Of a stretch of 37,138 nucleotides of DNA, positions 1 to 7,188 are shown one piece after another. A program made the position numbers and the translations under genes. The DNA is from Candidatus Hydrothermota bacterium (lineage in GTDB: Bacteria > Hydrothermota > Hydrothermia > UBA1063), in assembly GCA_003644895.1 (NCBI GenBank), contig QNDO01000001.1, forward strand, positions 1-37,138, read 5' to 3'. Under the pieces are notes generated by a model that did no database searches, was not told the origin of the DNA, and saw only the letters and a program-made list of their open reading frames with translations. The first letter of the stretch is position 1, and each line of letters begins with the position of its first letter.

Positions 1-230
1 GGATCCGGCATCTGTTCATAACTTCTAATTACTCTCTTTAAAGTTTTTACAGTAAGATAGCCTGTGATCAATAGAATATCCGCCTGACGCGGAGTTGCCA
101 TTGGGGCTATCCCAAATCTTTCCATATCAAATCTCGATGTCATTGTGGGAGGCATTTCTACCGCACCACAGCCGGTGCAGAAGTGCATCATCCATAAAGA
201 TCTTGATTGAGCAAATTTGAAAAGTCCCAT
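1..230 (-). CDS. NuoB/MbxJ-like 20-kDa [4Fe-4S] subunit of a group-4-hydrogenase-related complex; 5' part only, gene runs off the left edge
   Basis: My own reverse-strand translation from the ATG at 230 gives MGLFKFAQSRSLWMMHFCTGCGAVEMPPTMTSRFDMERFGIAPMATPRQADILLITGYLTVKTLKRVIRSYEQMPDP. It has NuoB-family blocks (SLW, C-x2-C-x2-E, FG..P..SPRQAD-like, Y.QMP.P). A GGTGAG Shine-Dalgarno lies 4 nt upstream. It is absent from the ORF track because it is open at the edge. Confidence 0.85.
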   Translation of the reverse strand, partial: MGLFKFAQSRSLWMMHFCTGCGAVEMPPTMTSRFDMERFGIAPMATPRQADILLITGYLTVKTLKRVIRSYEQMPD

Positions 231-235
231 TTTTC

Positions 236-1129
236 TCACCTCCAGATTGCAACAATGAGTAAGCCTATAAGGCTTATGACGAGCGGGTATTTCCAGTAAA
301 ATTTAACAGCCTGCCCAATTCTAAATCTCGGCATAACTGCATTAATAATCACTAGAGTGATGAAGAGAAAAAATGTTTTCAATATGAAGGTCAACCAGTT
401 ACCTCCACCAAAGAATATATCCACAACAAGGCCGGTCTCAACAATGATACCTACAGCATGATAGAGCTGGAGCAATCCAAGGAATTTTCCACTGTATTCC
501 ACCATTGGTCCTGACGCAATTTCATGGGGAGCAATCACCTGATCGAAGGGTTTTTCACCCATCATACCATGGAGGGCTATAAGTCCTGCAAAAGCAGATA
601 TAAAGAATGGGAAGACATTCCAATGAGGAAAGGCAGATTGTACAGTAACAAGAGTCGCTATGGATGCGGTTCTGTGATGTATCATCGGAGCAAGAACCGA
701 AAGGAAGAATACCAACTCATACCCCAGCATGAGGGTTAATCCTCTTGCTATACCTATGGTTGCGTTGGGATTTGCCCCCTCGCCTGCTCCCAAAGCCATT
801 CCCAATGGAGCAACTACAAGAAGATAAAATACCACGAAAATATCGCCTTCAAAAGAGAAGAGGGGTCTGAAACTCCCGAGAGGAATGAAAAATAGGCTTA
901 CAAGAACCCCGGTAAAGGCAATTACGGGCCCCAGATTGAACATTACCCCGTGACTTGCTTCGTTACTCTTGGCAAACAGCTTGAGAACGTCCAGAATATT
1001 CTGATAGAAGGGGGGACCATATCTTCTGTGAATCCTTGCTATAACTTTACGTGCAATACCTCCATATAGGAGTCCAAGAATAATTACTCCAAAAACTATT
1101 CCCAGGTATTCAATAATTTTCAGAACCAT
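236..1129 (-). CDS. NuoH/MbxM-like integral membrane subunit (complex I subunit 1 / HycD / EchB family)
   Basis: The 297-aa polytopic protein has a NuoH-type N-terminal block (RKVIARIHRRYGPPFYQNILDVLKLFAK). It lies 5 nt upstream of the NuoB-like gene and overlaps the preceding gene by 10 nt. Confidence 0.85.
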   Translation of the reverse strand: MVLKIIEYLGIVFGVIILGLLYGGIARKVIARIHRRYGPPFYQNILDVLKLFAKSNEASHGVMFNLGPVIAFTGVLVSLFFIPLGSFRPLFSFEGDIFVVFYLLVVAPLGMALGAGEGANPNATIGIARGLTLMLGYELVFFLSVLAPMIHHRTASIATLVTVQSAFPHWNVFPFFISAFAGLIALHGMMGEKPFDQVIAPHEIASGPMVEYSGKFLGLLQLYHAVGIIVETGLVVDIFFGGGNWLTFILKTFFLFITLVIINAVMPRFRIGQAVKFYWKYPLVISLIGLLIVAIWR

Positions 1130-2925
1130 AGTTTACCTCCATAGATTAAGATTAAGAGGAGAAGAGTAAACCCCAGGTAAACTATATAGTCGCCGTGACT
1201 ACCACTGTACACTCTCCTTACAGCATCTCCCAACCCATCAACAAATTTAGAAAGCCAGTCATATAAGGACTCTATTCGTAATTTAAGAAAGCCTTTTATT
1301 TCTCTTTCCAGAAAGAGGTAAAAGTCATCTACATAATGGAGTTTATAACTTTCGTCCACAACCTCACCGGCTGTGAAATTATCGAATTGATGCACTTTCC
1401 TGGTTCTGCCGCCAAGAAGATAAACTATGAAAGCAAAGACAAAGGCTGCAGCAAACACAATTCCCACATAAAGTGCATTAAATTTGCCCAGTGAGGTGAC
1501 AATGTATGAGTAGCTATGTTCTATCTTGCCGATTCCAAATATGGAGAGGAATCTATCGATATAATAGAGTACTATTCCAGGCTGCACACCAAAGAGGAGC
1601 AAAGGAATTAAGAGAACTATAATCGGGAAGGTGAAGTTAAAAGGTGCCTCTTTTAGATCTTCATATTTAGAGGGTAGTGGACCAAGAAATATAGAGTACA
1701 CAAGTCTGAAGGAATACAGAAATGCGGTTATTGATGCGGTAAAAATGACTGCCGCAAGGAGTATTCTACCCTCTATTATAAAACTTTCGTATAACATCCA
1801 CTTGCCAGGGAAACCCACTGTAGGTGGAATACCGGATAATGCAATGATCCCGAAAAGAAGACCTATGAAAGAAACGGGCATCTTTTTGATCAATCCTCCC
1901 AGTTCCGTCATTCTGGTTGTGCCTGTCCTGTAGGCAACAGATGCAATGGTGAAGAAGAGGAGGGTTTCAAAGATTGCGTGGCCAACAAATTGAAAAGCTC
2001 CAGCTGATATGGATAAGGGGGTTGCAAGAGCGATACCCGCTACAACATACCCGAGCTGGCTTATGCTGGAATAAGCGAGAAGTTCCTTTGAATCATCCTT
2101 TGTTGTGGCATATATTCCTGCAAAAAGGGCAGTAATACCTCCGAGCCACGCAAGAGTGAGCTGCAGGTACTTTGCCCCTATAAAGAATTTCGCAAAAGTG
2201 TAAAACATTATGAGGAAGTAGCCGAAAATTCCTATCTTCGAAACAGCGCCGGATAAAAGCGCAGTGAAGGAATGAGGACTATCTCTATAAGCATCCTTAA
2301 CCCAAACATGGAACGGCATCAGAGCGGATTTTACCGCAAATCCAGCAAAGAGTAGAAGAAATAGTACTAACTTCTGTGCTTTACCAAGATAGTGGACCTC
2401 ATTCATGAAATAGCTGCCTGTAAATCTGTACAATATCGCTATTGCTGCCACTATAAAATATGCACCCAATAGATTCCATATGAGATACTTAACGGCACTT
2501 TCCTTCCTGCCATCCCAGATACCAAAGAATGAAAATAAGGTAACAAGCTCCAAGGAGAGGAAAAGTGTTATGGAATCGTATGCATTCACAAAGAGAAGCA
2601 TTCCGGCAAGCAGGAACTGTACAGATAGGTAATAGAAATCACTGTGTTTTTCCTTGAATGAAGCAAGAATGGAAAGGAAGCCTATCACCACCACTATCTC
2701 CCCGATAAGCCAGGACAGGGGAGAAAAGGCCACAGCGTGGAGTTTGAATAACCCTATATCTATGGTGAAACCATATAACTTTCCATATAAGATGGAGTGG
2801 AAATAAAGGGAAAGTGTTGAACTGGTGAAGGCAATCGCATGTCCGAGGTGTTTCGAAATCTTGGCGCCGAGGTAAGTGAGAATCCCACCAACAAATAAAA
2901 TTAGCAAAATATAGAAAAGGGTCAT
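1120..2925 (-). CDS. MrpD/NuoL-family proton-conducting antiporter-like subunit with C-terminal extension (MbxH'-equivalent)
   Basis: About 600-aa polytopic protein with the Proton_antipo_M-type core (WVKDAY..SPHSFTALLSG..SKIGIFG, SSISQLGYV). I prefer the ATG at 2925 (GGAGG 6 nt upstream) over the track's TTG at 2931. About 130 extra C-terminal residues extend beyond the MrpD core. Confidence 0.8.
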   Translation of the reverse strand: MTLFYILLILFVGGILTYLGAKISKHLGHAIAFTSSTLSLYFHSILYGKLYGFTIDIGLFKLHAVAFSPLSWLIGEIVVVIGFLSILASFKEKHSDFYYLSVQFLLAGMLLFVNAYDSITLFLSLELVTLFSFFGIWDGRKESAVKYLIWNLLGAYFIVAAIAILYRFTGSYFMNEVHYLGKAQKLVLFLLLFAGFAVKSALMPFHVWVKDAYRDSPHSFTALLSGAVSKIGIFGYFLIMFYTFAKFFIGAKYLQLTLAWLGGITALFAGIYATTKDDSKELLAYSSISQLGYVVAGIALATPLSISAGAFQFVGHAIFETLLFFTIASVAYRTGTTRMTELGGLIKKMPVSFIGLLFGIIALSGIPPTVGFPGKWMLYESFIIEGRILLAAVIFTASITAFLYSFRLVYSIFLGPLPSKYEDLKEAPFNFTFPIIVLLIPLLLFGVQPGIVLYYIDRFLSIFGIGKIEHSYSYIVTSLGKFNALYVGIVFAAAFVFAFIVYLLGGRTRKVHQFDNFTAGEVVDESYKLHYVDDFYLFLEREIKGFLKLRIESLYDWLSKFVDGLGDAVRRVYSGSHGDYIVYLGFTLLLLILIYGGKLWF

Positions 2926-2927
2926 GG

Positions 2928-4385
2928 TCAACCTCCAATTACCAGATTTATGTATGAAAACTTCATAAATATCGCTTCAGATGCTTTTTCAAAGAGAGGA
3001 GTGATTAATCCCGGATTTACGCCAATAATAATTATGAATGCAGCCATAGCAATGATGGGCATTGCTTCAAGAAGATGGATTTCAAGATGAGAAGCCTCTT
3101 CATTTCTTTCGTAAAGGATTTTCATAAATCTCACATAGTAATAAACTTCGACTATTGCACCCGTCAAAATCAGAGAGAGTAAGAGATAAAGCCCTTGTTT
3201 CCCGGTGGATAAAAGAATAGATAACTTGCTCCAGAATCCTGCAAATAAAGGAAATCCTAAAAGGTTAAGAATAGCCAGAGAAAACAGGAGACCAAGCAGA
3301 GGGTTTTTCCTTCCCAGCCCTTTGTAATCATCCAGTTTATAAATCCCGAGATTTTTGATCACCATTCCCACCAGTAAAAAGAGAGCAACCTTTGACACTG
3401 CATGATTTACACCCTGAAATATAGCTGCTTTTAAGGCAGGGATTGTGCCTATCCCAAAAATTGCCACAACAAGTCCCATCTGACCTATGGAAGAATATGC
3501 TAACATTCTTTTAACCCGCTTCTGCTTCAGAGCTGATAATTCTGCAATCAGAAACGTCATAATTCCAAAAACGATTAATAGCTTGCTTCTTAATGGTAAA
3601 TCCAACAGAGTAAAGGTAAGCCTTATTAAAGCGTAGAGGCCGGCTTTTGAAATAACTCCTGCAAGAAGTGCAGAAATTCCCTCTCCAGCGCCCTGGTACG
3701 CATCCGGGGCCCAGCCATTGAATGGAAAAATTTCAGATTCCACAAAGAAAGCTACAAGAATCAGAAGGAAGGCAACAAGTGCAACACTTTTATTTATAAA
3801 AGGCAACTTTGCGGCGATATCTGCTATATTTAAGGTACCTGTCTGTCCATAAAGAAGCGCGATTGCCACGAGAAAAAGAGAGGAACCTATGGAGCTAATT
3901 ATTAGATATTTTATACCCCCTTCCAGCGATGCTTTCTGTTTCCTTATGGAGACCAGTGCGTATGATGAGATGGCAGTAATCTCAAAAAATACAAACAGAT
4001 TGAAAAGATCTCCAGTCATAATAATTCCGGATGCGCCCATTAAATTTAGAATGAGGAGAGTGAAAAATTTGTCTTCAGGTTCCTCACCGGGGTGAGCAAG
4101 ATAATATAATGAAATCAGGAAGCCAATTGTTAGTACAATTAGAAGAAATACAGCGGAGAATGGTTCCACAACCAGATTGATAGAAAAGGGAGGTTTAAAT
4201 CCCGCAGTATAGGCAATTACTGGTGTTCTCAGAGATTTGAGTGCTAGACTAGCACCGATGTATAGATCGAAACCAATGGTTAAAAAGGCAATTATTTTTC
4301 CTGTACGTTTTACGAAAGGAGAGATAAGTGCTATGAAAAAAGCACCGAAAAGTGATATTGCAATAATCAGTATCGGATTCACCAT
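2928..4385 (-). CDS. MrpD/NuoN-family antiporter-like subunit (MbxH-equivalent)
   Basis: The 485-aa polytopic protein has an MrpD/NuoM/N-type core (FPFNGWAPDAYQGA, LAYSSIGQMG). An AAGGAG SD lies upstream, and the gene overlaps the MrpC-like stop by 7 nt. Confidence 0.85.
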   Translation of the reverse strand: MVNPILIIAISLFGAFFIALISPFVKRTGKIIAFLTIGFDLYIGASLALKSLRTPVIAYTAGFKPPFSINLVVEPFSAVFLLIVLTIGFLISLYYLAHPGEEPEDKFFTLLILNLMGASGIIMTGDLFNLFVFFEITAISSYALVSIRKQKASLEGGIKYLIISSIGSSLFLVAIALLYGQTGTLNIADIAAKLPFINKSVALVAFLLILVAFFVESEIFPFNGWAPDAYQGAGEGISALLAGVISKAGLYALIRLTFTLLDLPLRSKLLIVFGIMTFLIAELSALKQKRVKRMLAYSSIGQMGLVVAIFGIGTIPALKAAIFQGVNHAVSKVALFLLVGMVIKNLGIYKLDDYKGLGRKNPLLGLLFSLAILNLLGFPLFAGFWSKLSILLSTGKQGLYLLLSLILTGAIVEVYYYVRFMKILYERNEEASHLEIHLLEAMPIIAMAAFIIIIGVNPGLITPLFEKASEAIFMKFSYINLVIGG

Positions 4386-4723
4386 CTCATCTCCTTTATT
4401 TTTCTAATATCTAAGGAATTATTCTTTTCATATATTCTTACTACTATAGAAAGAGCCATTGCAGTGACAGCAACACCTATAACTATGGCTGTGAGAACAA
4501 GAGCCTGAGGTATAGGATCAACCACTTTTGTCCAAGTTTTGTTCATAATAGGTGCAGTTCCACCACTTATATACCCTGTGGTTATAAGAAGAAGATTCAC
4601 CCCTGTCTCCATAATATTCAATCCAATTATAATCTTGATGAGATTCCTTTTGGTTGCTGCGATCATGATTCCGCCAATAATTAAAGCAATGGCAGCACCG
4701 TAAAACATTGCTCCGCCATTCAT
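4379..4723 (-). CDS. MrpC/NuoK-like small membrane subunit (MbxG-equivalent)
   Basis: 114 aa with three TM segments and the block IGLNIMETGVNLLLI, typical of MnhC/NuoK. It has an ATGA overlap with the upstream gene. Confidence 0.8.
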   Translation of the reverse strand: MNGGAMFYGAAIALIIGGIMIAATKRNLIKIIIGLNIMETGVNLLLITTGYISGGTAPIMNKTWTKVVDPIPQALVLTAIVIGVAVTAMALSIVVRIYEKNNSLDIRKIKEMRW

Positions 4724-5403
4724 TTCTCTTCCTCCTTAAGATTTCTAAGAACACCGGTCATCTCGGCTCCCACTTTGAATCCAATTAAAATATAGATAAG
4801 GGGAATAATTCCGGCGCTCAGCAACTTGCCGGGTATACCTTTAGGGAGGAAGTTAGCAAGAAAACTGTTTAGCATTACAAGTCCTAACAGCCCTGTGATA
4901 ACATAGAGTATACCTGCTGTTCCTTCGGTGAGAGAAAGGGTTTTTTCAGAAACTTCCTTTTGTGTATAGGCTAAGAATAAGAGGAGAAAGGCAGAAGCTA
5001 TAATCACCCCTCCGGGAAAACCACCTCCAGGTGTTAGATGTCCGTGAACAAATACATATGTGCCAAAAAGAATGATAAGTGGAAAGATATATCTTGCTGC
5101 TGTGCTGACAATTAGAGAAGAGGGTTCTTTTTCTTTCGATTTAAATCTCAATCCGTGAAGCAGGGCTCCAAGAGCTGTGGCAGCAAGGAAAAGTACAGTT
5201 ACTTCTCCGAGTGTATCAAAACCCCTGTAAAGAACCACCACCGCAGTGACAATATTCTGGGAACCTGTCTCCTTCATTCCGTAATCTATATAATGTCTGG
5301 CAACAACTGTTTTGTCCTCGCCGAAAGTATTATATTTAACCACACTGTAAAGAGACAGTCCTAGCAGTACAAATAGAAGAATAATCAATACTTTTTTTAT
5401 CAT
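4720..5403 (-). CDS. MrpB (MnhB-domain) membrane subunit (MbxF-equivalent)
   Basis: 227 aa containing the MnhB signature NIVTAVVVLYRGFDTLGEVTVLF. It has an ATGA overlap with the upstream gene. Confidence 0.8.
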   Translation of the reverse strand: MIKKVLIILLFVLLGLSLYSVVKYNTFGEDKTVVARHYIDYGMKETGSQNIVTAVVVLYRGFDTLGEVTVLFLAATALGALLHGLRFKSKEKEPSSLIVSTAARYIFPLIILFGTYVFVHGHLTPGGGFPGGVIIASAFLLLFLAYTQKEVSEKTLSLTEGTAGILYVITGLLGLVMLNSFLANFLPKGIPGKLLSAGIIPLIYILIGFKVGAEMTGVLRNLKEEEK

Positions 5404-5651
5404 TTTTCAAACCTCTCTGTTTTCTTCAAAACATAAACGAAAATACCTGTTGTGAGTCCTGCTCCAATTGCAGCTTCGGTGATAGCTACATCTGGTGCTT
5501 GAAGGATTAAATAAAGGATAGATGCTATCAGACTGATGGTACCTGAAGAGAGTACCGCTACAAGAAGATCTTTTGTGACCCAAGCTACTATGGTAGCACC
5601 GAGCATGAAGAGGACCAAGATGGAAACAAATATGATAATTATACTACTCAT
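5400..5651 (-). CDS. DUF4040/MbhD-MbxD-like small membrane subunit (MrpA C-terminal-like)
   Basis: The block LQAPDVAITEAAIGAGLTTG is typical of the DUF4040/MrpB-N family. I prefer the start at MSSIII (5651) because the track start at 5681 would overlap the MrpG-like gene by 38 nt. Confidence 0.7.
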   Translation of the reverse strand: MSSIIIIFVSILVLFMLGATIVAWVTKDLLVAVLSSGTISLIASILYLILQAPDVAITEAAIGAGLTTGIFVYVLKKTERFEK

Positions 5652-5970
5652 CTTTTTCCTCCCCGTATTGATCAACAACACTTTTTTCTGTTAATTTAAC
5701 CCCCATTTTGTAGCTTGCTCTCCCTATGGCATGGGCTGCGACGGGGTTTGTGAGAAGTAAGAAGAATGCAATAACGAGTGACTTGAGGAACCAGGAGGGT
5801 TCTATTATGCCCACACCCACTATGGTGGAAAAAGCTCCGAGTGTTGTGCATTTTGTTCCTGCCTGCAGTCTGTTGTAAACATCGGGCATTCTGAAGACTC
5901 CGAGGGAACCCAGAAACAAAAAGATAACTCCGATTAAAATCAATATTTCACCAAAAATCATGTTCCACAT
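5644..5970 (-). CDS. MrpG (MnhG) subunit (MbxC-equivalent)
   Basis: 108 aa with FRMPDVYNRLQAGTKCTTLG and NPVAAHAIGRA, which are MnhG/PhaG hallmarks. A GGAGG lies 6 nt upstream. Confidence 0.85.
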   Translation of the reverse strand: MWNMIFGEILILIGVIFLFLGSLGVFRMPDVYNRLQAGTKCTTLGAFSTIVGVGIIEPSWFLKSLVIAFFLLLTNPVAAHAIGRASYKMGVKLTEKSVVDQYGEEKDE

Positions 5971-6242
5971 CAGAGACCTCCTTCGAAATACCTAGCAATG
6001 GCAAGCACAGTTATGAAGGCAAGGACTGCATATACAAGGGCAACATCCATATATATTCCTCTCTTGAAGAAAAGAGAGAACAGAACAAGAAGTGCTGTTG
6101 TTACTGTAGTCATGGCATCGACTGAGACAACTCTGTCAGAGGAGGTAGGACCAAGAATAAACCGGAGGAAAAGCAGAAACAGGCCCAGAAGAATAAAGCC
6201 TGCATAGATATACCACATCAATCCAGAAACCGCTTGAGACAT
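5970..6242 (-). CDS. MrpF (MnhF) subunit (MbxB-equivalent)
   Basis: 90 aa with three TM segments and an LGPTSSDRVVSVDAMTT block typical of MnhF. A GGGAGG lies 8 nt upstream of the ATG at 6242. Confidence 0.8.
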   Translation of the reverse strand: MSQAVSGLMWYIYAGFILLGLFLLFLRFILGPTSSDRVVSVDAMTTVTTALLVLFSLFFKRGIYMDVALVYAVLAFITVLAIARYFEGGL

Positions 6243-6718
6243 CTTTCAAACCTCCCTGATATGGCTTTTGATGCTTCTTCTGTATCGGTTGTTTGTACAT
6301 TTATCCAGTGGATATACAGGGTATCATCCTTAATATCCAGAGTGAAGGTTCCTGGGGTAAGTGTAATGGAATTGGCAACAAGGAGCTTACCAAGATCACT
6401 TTTCATATTGGTTTTGATCTTTACAATGCCGGGTTTAATAGGTAGTTTTGGGTGAATTACTCTATACGCAACATCGAGGTTTGCCTTTATCATCTCCCAG
6501 ATGAGATAAGGAAAGTAAATAATTCCGCAGAATATTTTTTTGGGAGTAAGGTTCAAAAGTCCCTTTTCAGTAAAGTAGCGGTATGTGAAGAGTGCCAGTA
6601 CAAGAGAAATTACGACTCCGGCAATGAGTTCCTCTGAATCTAATTTACCAGTGAAAATTACCCAGAGGATAAACATAATAATGGCTGTATACAGCCATCT
6701 GGAGATGTTTTTCATCAT
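6218..6718 (-). CDS. MrpE (MnhE) subunit (MbxA-equivalent), first gene of the operon
   Basis: 166 aa with two N-terminal TM segments followed by a soluble domain (ANLDVAYRVIHP, ITLTPGT), as in MnhE. A GGAGG lies directly upstream, and the ATG may be at 6718 or 6715. Confidence 0.75.
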   Translation of the reverse strand: MMKNISRWLYTAIIMFILWVIFTGKLDSEELIAGVVISLVLALFTYRYFTEKGLLNLTPKKIFCGIIYFPYLIWEMIKANLDVAYRVIHPKLPIKPGIVKIKTNMKSDLGKLLVANSITLTPGTFTLDIKDDTLYIHWINVQTTDTEEASKAISGRFERCLKRFLD

Positions 6719-6735
6719 CCCTCCTTGTGCAAGTT

Positions 6736-6757
6736 ATAATTTTCACATGAAAATTAT
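6736..6757. promoter_or_regulatory. 22-bp palindrome ATAATTTTCA-ca-TGAAAATTAT (candidate operator) in the Mbx-like/cupin divergent region
   Basis: Read directly: a perfect 10+10 inverted repeat with a 2-nt centre. It overlaps the -10 element and predicted start site of the minus-strand operon promoter. Confidence 0.6.
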
Positions 6758-6781
6758 GACACTTTAATCATGTTTTGTCAA
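6753..6781 (-). promoter_or_regulatory. Sigma-70-type promoter for the Mrp/Mbx-like operon (TTGACA-17-CATAAT)
   Basis: On the minus strand, TTGACA is the complement of 6776-6781. A 17-nt spacer follows, and CATAAT is the complement of 6753-6758. The promoter lies about 35 nt upstream of the MrpE-like ATG. Confidence 0.6.
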
Positions 6782-6843
6782 GCATTACTCTTTCCTTGAA
6801 ATTTCGTCCTCAAGAATCTAAAATTTACCAAAAGGAGGCTAAA

Positions 6844-7188
6844 ATGAAGGCGAAAGCGGTTCATTATACAGAAATTGTGGAAAAACCTGTAGAAATGGAA
6901 GGTGTTAAGGATGTTACAATAAGATGGTTGATTTCGGTAGAGGATAATGCACCAAATTTCTATATGAGAATGTTTACAGTTCAACCTGGTGGTTATACAC
7001 CATACCATTCACATCCTTACGAACACGAGGTTTTTATTCTCGAAGGAGAGGGGATTGTGGTAATAGAGGATAAAGAGCACAAAATGAAAGAAGGATATGT
7101 TATAGCTGTTCCTCCAGATGTAAAGCATCAGTTTAAAAATACAGGAAATGGAGCTTTAAGATTTTTATGTTTGATTCCAAAGCGTTGA
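6844..7188 (+). CDS. Small single-domain cupin protein
   Basis: The cupin_2 motifs are present (GGYTPYHSHPYEHEVFILEGEG ... PPDVKHQFKNTG). I prefer the ATG at 6844 (AAGGAGG 6 nt upstream) over the track start at 6775. Confidence 0.8.
   Translation: MKAKAVHYTEIVEKPVEMEGVKDVTIRWLISVEDNAPNFYMRMFTVQPGGYTPYHSHPYEHEVFILEGEGIVVIEDKEHKMKEGYVIAVPPDVKHQFKNTGNGALRFLCLIPKR

Follow-up and report, generated by a model that had tools for sequence, protein, structure and literature searches.

The first 6,718 positions of the window, the 37,138-nucleotide stretch of DNA from a Candidatus Hydrothermota bacterium that was analyzed here, are occupied on the minus strand by genes in the order MbsA-B-C-D-E-G-H-H'-M, followed by the start of MbsJ. 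All of them are recognized by Pfam, with E-values from 1e-6 to 1e-64, and adjacent genes either touch or share a few bases. The genes and associated features, in the direction of transcription and continuing onto a second contig of the same assembly (C218), are as follows.

6775-7188, plus strand: cupin gene (Pfam), divergent to mbsA and sharing the intervening upstream region with it
6753..6781, minus strand: candidate promoter upstream of mbsA, TTGACA-17-CATAAT (with TG), an 11/12 match to the consensus
6218..6718, minus strand: MbsA (MrpE-like), 166 aa; PF01899 MNHE, E = 2e-44, and NCBIfam Mrp subunit E models
5970..6242, minus strand: MbsB (MrpF-like), 90 aa; PF04066, E = 2e-17
5644..5970, minus strand: MbsC (MrpG-like), 108 aa; PF03334 (MnhG), E = 3e-27
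5400..5681, minus strand: MbsD (MbhD/DUF4040-type), 83-93 aa; PF13244 MbhD, E = 2e-21
4720..5403, minus strand: MbsE (MbhE and MnhB/MrpB domains), 227 aa; PF20501, PF04039
4379..4723, minus strand: MbsG (MrpC/NuoK-like), 114 aa; PF00420 (Oxidored_q2), E = 1e-25
2928..4385, minus strand: MbsH, antiporter-like pump subunit, 485 aa; PF00361 (Proton_antipo_M)
1120..2931, minus strand: MbsH', second antiporter-like subunit, longer than MbsH and extended at its C terminus, 601-603 aa; PF00361
236..1129, minus strand: MbsM (NuoH-like; anchors the redox module in the membrane), 297 aa; PF00146 (NADHdh), E = 1e-61
3..239, minus strand: MbsJ (NuoB-like), first 76-79 of 171 residues; PF01058 (Oxidored_q6)
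Contig C218 (G000:C218:1-2992; 2,992 bp), minus strand: MbsK, MbsL, and the MbsN fusion

The length of MbsD depends on the choice of the start codon: the GTG start gives 93 aa, and the call on conspecific contigs gives 83 aa. For MbsJ, translation likely starts at the ATG at position 230 rather than at the GTG at position 239.

These genes encode the membrane half and the beginning of the redox arm of a bacterial version, with 13 genes, of the sulfur-reducing, ion-pumping MBS (formerly Mbx) complex of archaea. The sequence-only reading of this DNA had described a series of Mrp antiporter- and complex I-like genes on the minus strand, and each of the families that it named was borne out by Pfam. 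The Mbx/MBS gene order that it had proposed also stood, while its gene letters had to be replaced, as the current naming of the Pyrococcus furiosus operon is MbsA-B-C-D-E-G-H-H'-M-J-K-L-N. The distinction that it had drawn from the Mbh hydrogenase order was confirmed by the presence of two antiporter-like subunits and by the MBS order itself.

Base 1 of the contig (C1) is also the first base of the window, and the MbsJ gene is truncated there, so the NuoB-like gene has been cut by the assembly and not by biology. The catalytic NuoD-like gene, which had been expected just beyond this edge, is encoded on contig C218, which continues the operon according to the conspecific contigs. As anticipated for an MBS-type operon, the downstream genes on this contig are NuoC-, NuoD-, and NuoI-like. 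In blastn comparisons, base 1 of C1 and the end of C218 map 310 bp apart on the conspecific contig L024, with 99.5-99.8% identity. No contig of the organism's own assembly, in which the operon is split, contains the 310 bp of the junction or the final 127 codons of the N gene, and the full 13-gene picture therefore relies on conspecific contigs. On six of these, from other samples, the order A-B-C-D-E-G-H-H'-M-J-K-L-N is complete and is followed at the 3' end by sulfatase or polysaccharide genes.

Comparisons with proteins of known structure place the subunits of this operon with those of the P. furiosus MBS: the MBS counterpart was the best match for every subunit compared, namely H, H', M, J, and L, and for the N-terminal region of N. 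Among the membrane subunits, MbsH is closest to 6U8Y_H (325 bits, against 194 for MbhH and 174 for MrpD), and MbsM scores 182 bits to 6U8Y_M versus 110 to MbhM. The best match of MbsH' is its namesake 6U8Y_X (305 bits, residues 7-595 to 6-615; MbhH, 130 bits), and the alignment extends over the C-terminal lateral-helix extension, a feature that is thus present here as well.

The C-x2-C motif that had been pointed out near the N terminus of the NuoB-like protein is indeed present in the translation of the window (...HFCTGCGAVEMPP...) and aligns to MbsJ without a gap. It comprises Cys18 and Cys21 (FCTGCG) in a short loop of MBS length, instead of the tandem Cys-Cys. The organism's own J sequence is 62% identical to its P. 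furiosus counterpart, and the full-length J protein, taken from L024, matches 6U8Y_J with 250 bits, ungapped over residues 3-160. The residues Cys21, Cys86, and Cys116, equivalent to the ligating Cys28, Cys93, and Cys123 in P. furiosus, are invariant in the 20 bacterial loci examined, whereas the position of the nonligating P. furiosus Cys25 is held by either Cys or Gly, the latter in 9 of the 20 loci (7 from Fermentibacterota, plus L029 and L030). Judged by alignment, this cysteine pattern fits the three-Cys catalytic cluster described in PMC7684303.

The large subunit was the one that the sequence-only reading had considered decisive, and inspection of its [NiFe]-binding cysteines bore out the MBS assignment. 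In each pair, the second cysteine has given way to another residue, so that two of the four are left, both here and in all 20 relatives. Those left here lie within the motifs RICVPEPDV and CPPDIER that are shared with the P. furiosus MbsL. These residues, Cys66 and Cys361, equivalent to P. furiosus Cys85 and Cys385, are invariant across the 20 bacterial loci. Since DMTS can be reduced in vitro without the conserved cysteines of L, this invariance is no proof of the same chemistry. Overall, the protein is 50.7% identical to the P. furiosus MbsL (6U8Y_L) and scores 398 bits to it, compared to 270 bits to the Thermus Nqo4, 154 to MbhL, and 114 to HycE. It also exceeds the cut-off of the NCBIfam NuoD model NF004739 (443 bits; cut-off, 360). 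In the alignment to 2FUG_4, the quinone ligands of Nqo4, His38 and Tyr87, correspond to Thr18 and Val67 of MbsL. The separation from Mbh and Ech, which is made on PDB score margins and these motifs, supports the Mbx/MBS reading of the operon.

The last subunit departs from the archaeal layout. Here, the NuoI-like MbsN is fused to a module of the NfnB/SudA/GltD type with a predicted FAD, NADPH site, and two extra [4Fe-4S] clusters. Residues 5-121 match MbsN (113 bits), and residues 147-588 match the Thermotoga maritima NfnB (4YLF_B; 341 bits), the NfnI large subunit (330 bits), and GltD (225 bits), with Pfam recognizing Fer4_20 (PF14691, 1.6e-25) and Pyr_redox_2 (PF07992, 6e-22). There are four Cys4 cluster motifs in all, the two in the C-terminal module being formed by Cys182/185/188/192 and Cys227/231/235/239, along with the GAGPAG and GGGDVAMD...YRRR motifs. 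Against the NfnB/NfnI/SudA/GltD family (4YLF_B, 5JCA_L, 6S6S_G), the 445 C-terminal residues align end to end, with all motifs retained. What distinguishes the protein from this family is the covalent join to a NuoI/MbsN domain and an operon that is devoid of NfnA/SudB or GltB: on the conspecific contigs, no gene for such a partner was detected in the operon or its flanks. The fusion also matches, over its full length (residues 2-588 to 7-606), the "putative oxidoreductase" model NF010590/PRK13984. Its score of 628 bits is below the cut-off of 946, which indicates a diverged lineage; in the control set, this cut-off was exceeded in 1 of 14 genomes.

The same fusion is found in all 20 bacterial loci checked, so that the stand-alone N subunit typical of MBS is not seen in this group; instead, the fusion is the mark of a bacterial variant that has already been described (PMC4758237). 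Full-length homologues of the fusion have been named from "Candidatus Hydrothermae," WOR-3, Caldisericaceae, Cloacimonetes, Bacteroidales, and Planctomycetes, the closest of them, at 68% identity, pointing to a WOR-3/Hydrothermae-like host. Longer versions, of 741 to 755 aa, exist elsewhere: the 741-aa one ends a full MBS operon, and the 748-aa one is preceded by J-K-L only. Within the phylum, this bacterial form is present in approximately one-fourth of the 151 sampled genomes; in the only genome of the sample that is assembled as a single contig (G159), both an MbsL-type gene and the ~750-aa fusion are absent. The sample names of the host, an uncultured anaerobic bacterium, suggest a hydrothermal-sediment origin. 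Its genome encodes 2-oxoacid:ferredoxin oxidoreductases (four POR_N matches), Rnf, NfnAB, and an [FeFe] hydrogenase.

The fused "mbx-like" operon of bacteria has been known since 2015 (PMC4758237). The T. maritima mbxA gene was upregulated 4.4-fold with S0, as measured by quantitative PCR of this one gene (PMC9431562), and PMC10356935 reports induction of MBS by S0 in the bacterial strain 3DAC. Accordingly, the bacterial context of the operon, to which the sequence-only reading had drawn attention, is unsurprising in itself. Our search of the literature found no measurement of the donor, acceptor, or translocated ion for the fused bacterial form, no activity, expression, or structure data on this organism or on any other bacterial carrier of the fusion, and nothing relevant under the name "MbxN."

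The system has all 13 subunits of the P. furiosus MBS, encoded in an identical order, and also has in common with it the two vestigial cysteines in L, the absence of the quinone ligands, the three ligating cysteines of J, and the short loop in which the C-x2-C of J lies. The differences are in the bacterial host, in the sequences themselves (identity from ~51% for L to 62% for J), and in the N subunit: the archaeal MbsN is a stand-alone, ferredoxin-accepting protein of 208 residues, whereas here N carries the ~445-residue NfnB/GltD-type FAD/NADPH/2x[4Fe-4S] module. Regulation of the SurR type is not evident here. The Mrp-Mbx operon of Thermotoga, compared by its published description, is also bacterial and has a gltD-related flavoprotein at the NuoI position; the T. 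maritima genome likewise encodes Rnf, Nfn, and an [FeFe] hydrogenase. However, the operon described here ends without rubrerythrin. The MBS of strain 3DAC and the "CCTB" clade also has 13 genes and belongs to a small-genome thermophile from a hydrothermal setting that, as in the genome studied here, has an SH1-type soluble hydrogenase and Nfn alongside it, but the lineage is different, and the passages of PMC10356935 consulted are silent on a fused N subunit. The P. furiosus MBH (6CFW) resembles this complex in its Mrp-like module, in the C-x2-C of the small subunit, and in having a NuoH/B/C/D/I-like module; it differs in having one antiporter-like subunit, another gene order, and four [NiFe] cysteines, and all subunits encoded here have much lower scores against MBH than against MBS. 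Two other assignments were rejected. A stand-alone Mrp Na+/H+ antiporter is at odds with the colinearity and overlap of the Mrp-like genes with M, J, K, L, and N, and complex I (Nuo) with the C-x2-C in place of Cys-Cys in J, the replacement of His38 and Tyr87, and the absence of NuoE, NuoF, and NuoG from the operon.

Judging from these similarities, the operon probably encodes a 13-subunit MBS-type complex in which sulfane reduction would drive ion pumping and the fused module would serve as an NAD(P)H port. The gene products include Mrp-like Na+/H+ subunits (A, B, C, D, E, and G), the two antiporter-like pump subunits H and H', and a NuoH/B/C/D-like module of M, J, K, and L, with active-site residues as in the P. 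furiosus MBS. Given the fusion, electrons are predicted to pass along a chain made up of FAD, four [4Fe-4S] clusters of the N subunit, and the proximal cluster of J. The latter, a [4Fe-4S] cluster held by three cysteines, would reduce sulfane sulfur (polysulfide) in the chamber formed by L, J, and M, and this reduction would drive translocation of H+ or Na+, as in the P. furiosus MBS. The fused module would provide a direct port for pyridine nucleotides, probably NADPH, and the electron source may be NAD(P)H, reduced ferredoxin, or both. The standard potentials of NAD(P)H and polysulfide are approximately -320 mV and -260 mV, respectively, a span so small that pumping at the expense of NAD(P)H would be marginal unless the in-cell ratios help. 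A more specific proposal, which we make only tentatively, is that of an NADPH-driven (or NADPH- plus ferredoxin-driven) ion-pumping sulfane reductase, an analogue of complex I with an NfnB-type input in place of NuoEFG, that might also be the missing S0 reductase of sulfur respirers lacking psr and dsr, such as sy37. In that organism, the first cultured isolate of WOR-3, the authors flagged only a 750-aa "SudA-like" protein (PMC12285271).

Several other functions can be envisaged for the same set of genes. According to the older "Mbx" hypothesis, the complex would be an ion-translocating ferredoxin:NAD(P)+ oxidoreductase, with electrons passing from ferredoxin through N and the flavoprotein to NAD(P)+ and no sulfur chemistry involved. 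This view has been stated for Thermotoga and proteobacteria (PMC4758237) and for Mesotoga (bioRxiv 10.1101/322537), and it is consistent with the predicted binding of pyridine nucleotides by the NfnB/GltD-type module and with the production of reduced ferredoxin by this organism's 2-oxoacid oxidoreductases. Nevertheless, it appears unlikely here. On such a path, electrons would not pass through the J cluster or the L/J/M chamber, which is where coupling takes place in every machine of the complex I type, and yet the J and L residues concerned are invariant in the 20 loci. Moreover, Rnf and NfnAB already cover the exchange between ferredoxin and NAD(P), so that the cell is not otherwise short of a dedicated ferredoxin:NADP+ exchanger, and the hypothesis had been built on the P. 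furiosus Mbx, which proved to reduce polysulfide (PMC7684303). A flavin-based bifurcation or confurcation at the NfnB-like FAD is in keeping with a C-terminal domain that is nearer to the bifurcating NfnB and NfnI than to GltD; for example, the MBS chain and a second partner would share the electrons from NADPH, or NADPH and ferredoxin would together feed sulfane reduction. However, bifurcation is not predictable by sequence similarity alone, the operon contains no NfnA/SudB-type partner on the contigs examined, and the NfnA of this genome pairs with a separate NfnB on contig C231, all of which makes this mechanism quite improbable.

Two further possibilities were considered. A quinone-reducing NAD(P)H dehydrogenase, analogous to complex I with a different input module, would agree with the generally complex I-like architecture and with the score of L above the NuoD cut-off; it is very hard to reconcile with the loss of both ligands of the quinone head group, with the form of the cysteine motif in J, and with a similarity to MbsL that is far above that to any complex I subunit. 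A membrane-bound [NiFe] hydrogenase of the Mbh or Ech type, with which the complex shares the Mrp-linked architecture and the C-x2-C of the NuoB-like subunit, is refuted at the sequence level by the two missing [NiFe] cysteines here and in the 20 relatives, as well as by the scores of the large subunit, the second antiporter-like subunit, and the gene order, and can be considered practically eliminated.

The layout of this operon is known and widespread, and the present locus adds one lineage and little else. The interest of MBS itself lies in its evolutionary place in respiration, between the membrane-bound hydrogenases and complex I. Among anaerobes, the bacterial variant that carries its own NAD(P)H flavoprotein is very common. 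In automatic annotation, parts of the operon appear as "NADH-quinone oxidoreductase," "Na+/H+ antiporter," and "glutamate synthase small chain," names under which a probable sulfur respiration system stays hidden in metabolic reconstructions.

Ten consecutive ORFs, abutting or slightly overlapping, occupy positions 1 to 6718 of the window, and their Pfam assignments are identical to the gene list and order of the sequence-only reading, which had likened them to the operon for MBS (formerly Mbx), the ion-pumping sulfane reductase of Pyrococcus furiosus (subunit order A-B-C-D-E-G-H-H'-M-J-K-L-N).

Genes in window 1-6718, minus strand, in order of transcription (Pfam)
1 to 3: MNHE (MrpE), MrpF, MnhG
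4 to 6: MbhD, MbhE+MnhB, Oxidored_q2 (MrpC/NuoK)
7 and 8: Proton_antipo_M, two copies of 485 aa and 603 aa
9 and 10: NADHdh (NuoH), N-terminal half of Oxidored_q6 (NuoB)

The FCTGCGAVEM motif reported for the NuoB-like protein is also present in the translation. The window starts at base 1 of contig C1, one of the 248 contigs (1.68 Mb) of this assembly, so that the NuoB-like gene is truncated by the assembly. The single NuoD-like gene of the assembly is found on contig C218 (2,992 bp).

Genes on C218, minus strand
NuoC-like gene, 5' end open
NuoD-like gene, 367 aa
NuoI-like gene continuing into Fer4_20 and Pyr_redox_2 domains, 3' end open

Six longer contigs of other samples, drawn from ENA, JGI, and NCBI (GCA_021159285.1), came up in an exact-sequence look-up with the NuoD-like protein. 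Each carries a single 13-gene operon followed by unrelated envelope and polysaccharide genes, and sample and record names suggest an origin in hydrothermal sediment. These conspecific contigs extend the operon leftwards of C1, where it continues with the NuoC-, NuoD-, and NuoI-like genes. The best of them, L024, shares 99.8% identity with C1 and 99.5% with C218, and places a gap of 310 bp between base 1 of C1 and the end of C218; no contig of the window's own assembly covers this junction or the final 127 codons of N.

Subunit lengths (aa) on the six contigs
A 165, B 90 (82 as called on one), C 108, D 83, E 227
G 114, H 485, H' 601, M 297
J 171, K 180 (185 as called on one), L 367, N 591

The features compared here are those that separate MBS from MBH and complex I in the MBS structure paper (PMC7684303). 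The L subunit (367 aa) scored 398 bits (E 3e-118; 50.7% identity) against P. furiosus MbsL (6U8Y_L), versus 270 bits against Thermus Nqo4 (2FUG_4), 154 against MbhL (6CFW_L), and 114 against HycE (7Z0S_E). At the positions of the two C-x2-C pairs of [NiFe] hydrogenases, L has RICVPEPDV and DICPPDIER and thus retains only C66 and C361, equivalent to MbsL C85 and C385; the Nqo4 quinone ligands H38 and Y87 align with Thr18 and Val67. Full-length J aligns with MbsJ without gaps over residues 3-160 (250 bits, 62% identity; MbhJ 114, Nqo6 112), and the best matches of M, H, and H' are, by wide margins, the respective MBS chains, with the H' alignment spanning the full length, including the C-terminal extension. 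With NuoC-, NuoD-, and NuoI-like genes downstream and an L subunit that is closest to MbsL and has two of the four [NiFe] cysteines, the Mbx/MBS reading stands. As judged from sequence, the operon, with the conspecific contigs bridging C1 and C218, encodes every part of an MBS architecture, and its active site is of the MBS type.

The N subunit is a fusion. Its residues 5-121 best match MbsN (113 bits), and residues 147-588 match Thermotoga maritima NfnB (341 bits), the P. furiosus NfnI large subunit (330), and GltD (225). It contains four Cys4 motifs, two of the ferredoxin type and two of the NfnB/GltD type, a GAGPAG FAD fold, and a second fold (GGGDVAMD...YRRR) that aligns with the NfnB NADPH site, so that N would be expected to prefer NADPH. 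No gene for an NfnA/SudB or GltB partner was found in the operon on the conspecific contigs. This fusion is widespread: the best 120 homologues, 585-748 aa long, all show 98-100% coverage, with Ca. Hydrothermae, WOR-3, Caldisericaceae, Cloacimonetes, Bacteroidales, and Planctomycetes among the named sources, and the closest named one among the best homologues listed (68% identity) comes from Ca. Hydrothermae. Full-length matches are present in at least 34 of the 151 sampled genomes of this phylum, and a full-length NCBIfam model, PRK13984 ("putative oxidoreductase"), exists. A longer version of 732-755 aa has ∼110 extra C-terminal residues and an insertion (L029:10001-12226; P0060, P0065, P0072, P0115); one of its clusters carries a name from a Spirochaetota MAG. 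In L030:3394-7922 (GCA_054034575.1, JBPLQL010000135.1), J-K-L and a 748-aa N fusion lack upstream membrane-arm genes, and the four genes upstream lie on the opposite strand; the locus may be part of a split operon or encode a soluble subcomplex.

J, L, and N were compared across 20 bacterial loci, drawn from genomes of the same phylum, Fermentibacterota MAGs, and two MAGs from NCBI; in all of them M-J-K-L is followed by the fused N. Neither the two cysteines of L nor the three cluster-ligating cysteines of J vary among these loci. In the C-x2-C motif of J, the first cysteine (P. furiosus C25) is retained in the window's clade and replaced by Gly in 9 loci (7 from Fermentibacterota, L029, and L030). 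In P. furiosus, C25 is too distant for cluster ligation, and the C25A enzyme is fully active (PMC7684303). The natural variation at this position speaks for a proximal cluster with three cysteine ligands in the bacterial enzymes as well. P. furiosus MbsL and all the bacterial relatives share the two vestigial [NiFe] cysteines (L024:10001-11104 and the 20-locus alignment), even though replacing both (C85A/C385A) leaves the enzyme fully active in vitro (PMC7684303). In Fermentibacteraceae/Ca. Sabulitectum, MbsH and MbsH' form one ORF of 973-1017 aa (L010:4973-7894; L005, L006, L008), and the same genomes have Gly for the first Cys of the MbsJ motif. In Ca. Sabulitectum silens JCC-6 (MJAN01000001.1, L013:9863-12244), the MbsL-like frame stops around query residue 233 and the N-like frame is shortened as well, which could reflect a sequencing error, a frameshift, or decay of this copy.

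Bacterial operons of this type were known before this locus. The 13-subunit MBX of T. maritima has been termed an MBS homologue, with mbxA upregulated 4.4-fold with S0 (PMC9431562). Bacterial strain 3DAC is reported to have a 13-gene, S0-induced MBS, and MbsL to be distributed over Caldisericota, Thermotogota, and lineages related to them (PMC10356935). Strain sy37, the first cultured WOR-3 bacterium (2025), respires S0 without psr or dsr, the sole candidate of its authors being a 750-aa "SudA-like" protein that exceeds P. furiosus SudA by 276 residues (PMC12285271). N fusions of 741-755 aa in public MAGs bracket this length, and the 741-aa fusion of L029 is the last gene of a full MBS-type operon. 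The sy37 protein, a candidate by length, is therefore probably an MbsN fusion; on the same grounds, MBS is probably the "unknown mechanism" of its S0 respiration.

The window's own assembly encodes Rnf, several 2-oxoacid:ferredoxin oxidoreductases, one [FeFe] hydrogenase, and the genes below, among them two for proteolipids of the ATPase that would draw on the MBS gradient. This is the repertoire of an anaerobic fermenter that runs on ferredoxin, closely resembling those of T. maritima and strain 3DAC; Thermococcales and strain 3DAC likewise have an SH1-type hydrogenase alongside MBS.

Other genes of the assembly
C38 (L003:1-3361): four-gene group-3b-like (sulfhydrogenase/SH1-type) soluble [NiFe] hydrogenase: Fer4_22 protein, FAD/NAD-binding protein with DHODB Fe-S domain, Oxidored_q6 small subunit, NiFeSe_Hases large subunit
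C231, 2-814 and 799-2241, plus strand: NfnA-like and NfnB-like (481 aa) pair, a canonical Nfn besides the NfnB-like domain fused to MbsN
C71, ∼4340-4762: V-type K proteolipid, 162 aa, double-hairpin, PGTQG...ET-type motif
C155, 4223-4462: proteolipid c subunit, 80 aa, single-hairpin

In the predicted electron wire, electrons would pass from FAD through the four clusters of N to the J cluster. After the P. furiosus proposal, sulfane sulfur would be reduced at the three-Cys cluster, driving H+/Na+ through M, H', H, and the Mrp-like module, and the flavoprotein would connect the chain to the NAD(P)H pool, as a source or a sink of electrons. Judged by standard potentials, the redox step from NAD(P)H to polysulfide is small, so that most electrons may still come from ferredoxin, which counts against MBS fed by NAD(P)H. 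The main rival, the older idea of Mbx as a ferredoxin:NAD(P)+ oxidoreductase, is rated lower than sulfane reduction, because that route would skip the coupling site, which is strictly conserved, because this genome already has Rnf and Nfn for ferredoxin/NAD(P) exchange, and because the archaeal prototype later proved to reduce polysulfide.

Divergently from the operon, window 6719-7188 contains a cupin/AraC-ligand-binding-type gene (137-aa ORF; 114 aa as called on other contigs). It shares a ∼56-bp control region with mbsA, its position is kept on all conspecific contigs, and it may encode a regulator or sensor of the mbs operon.
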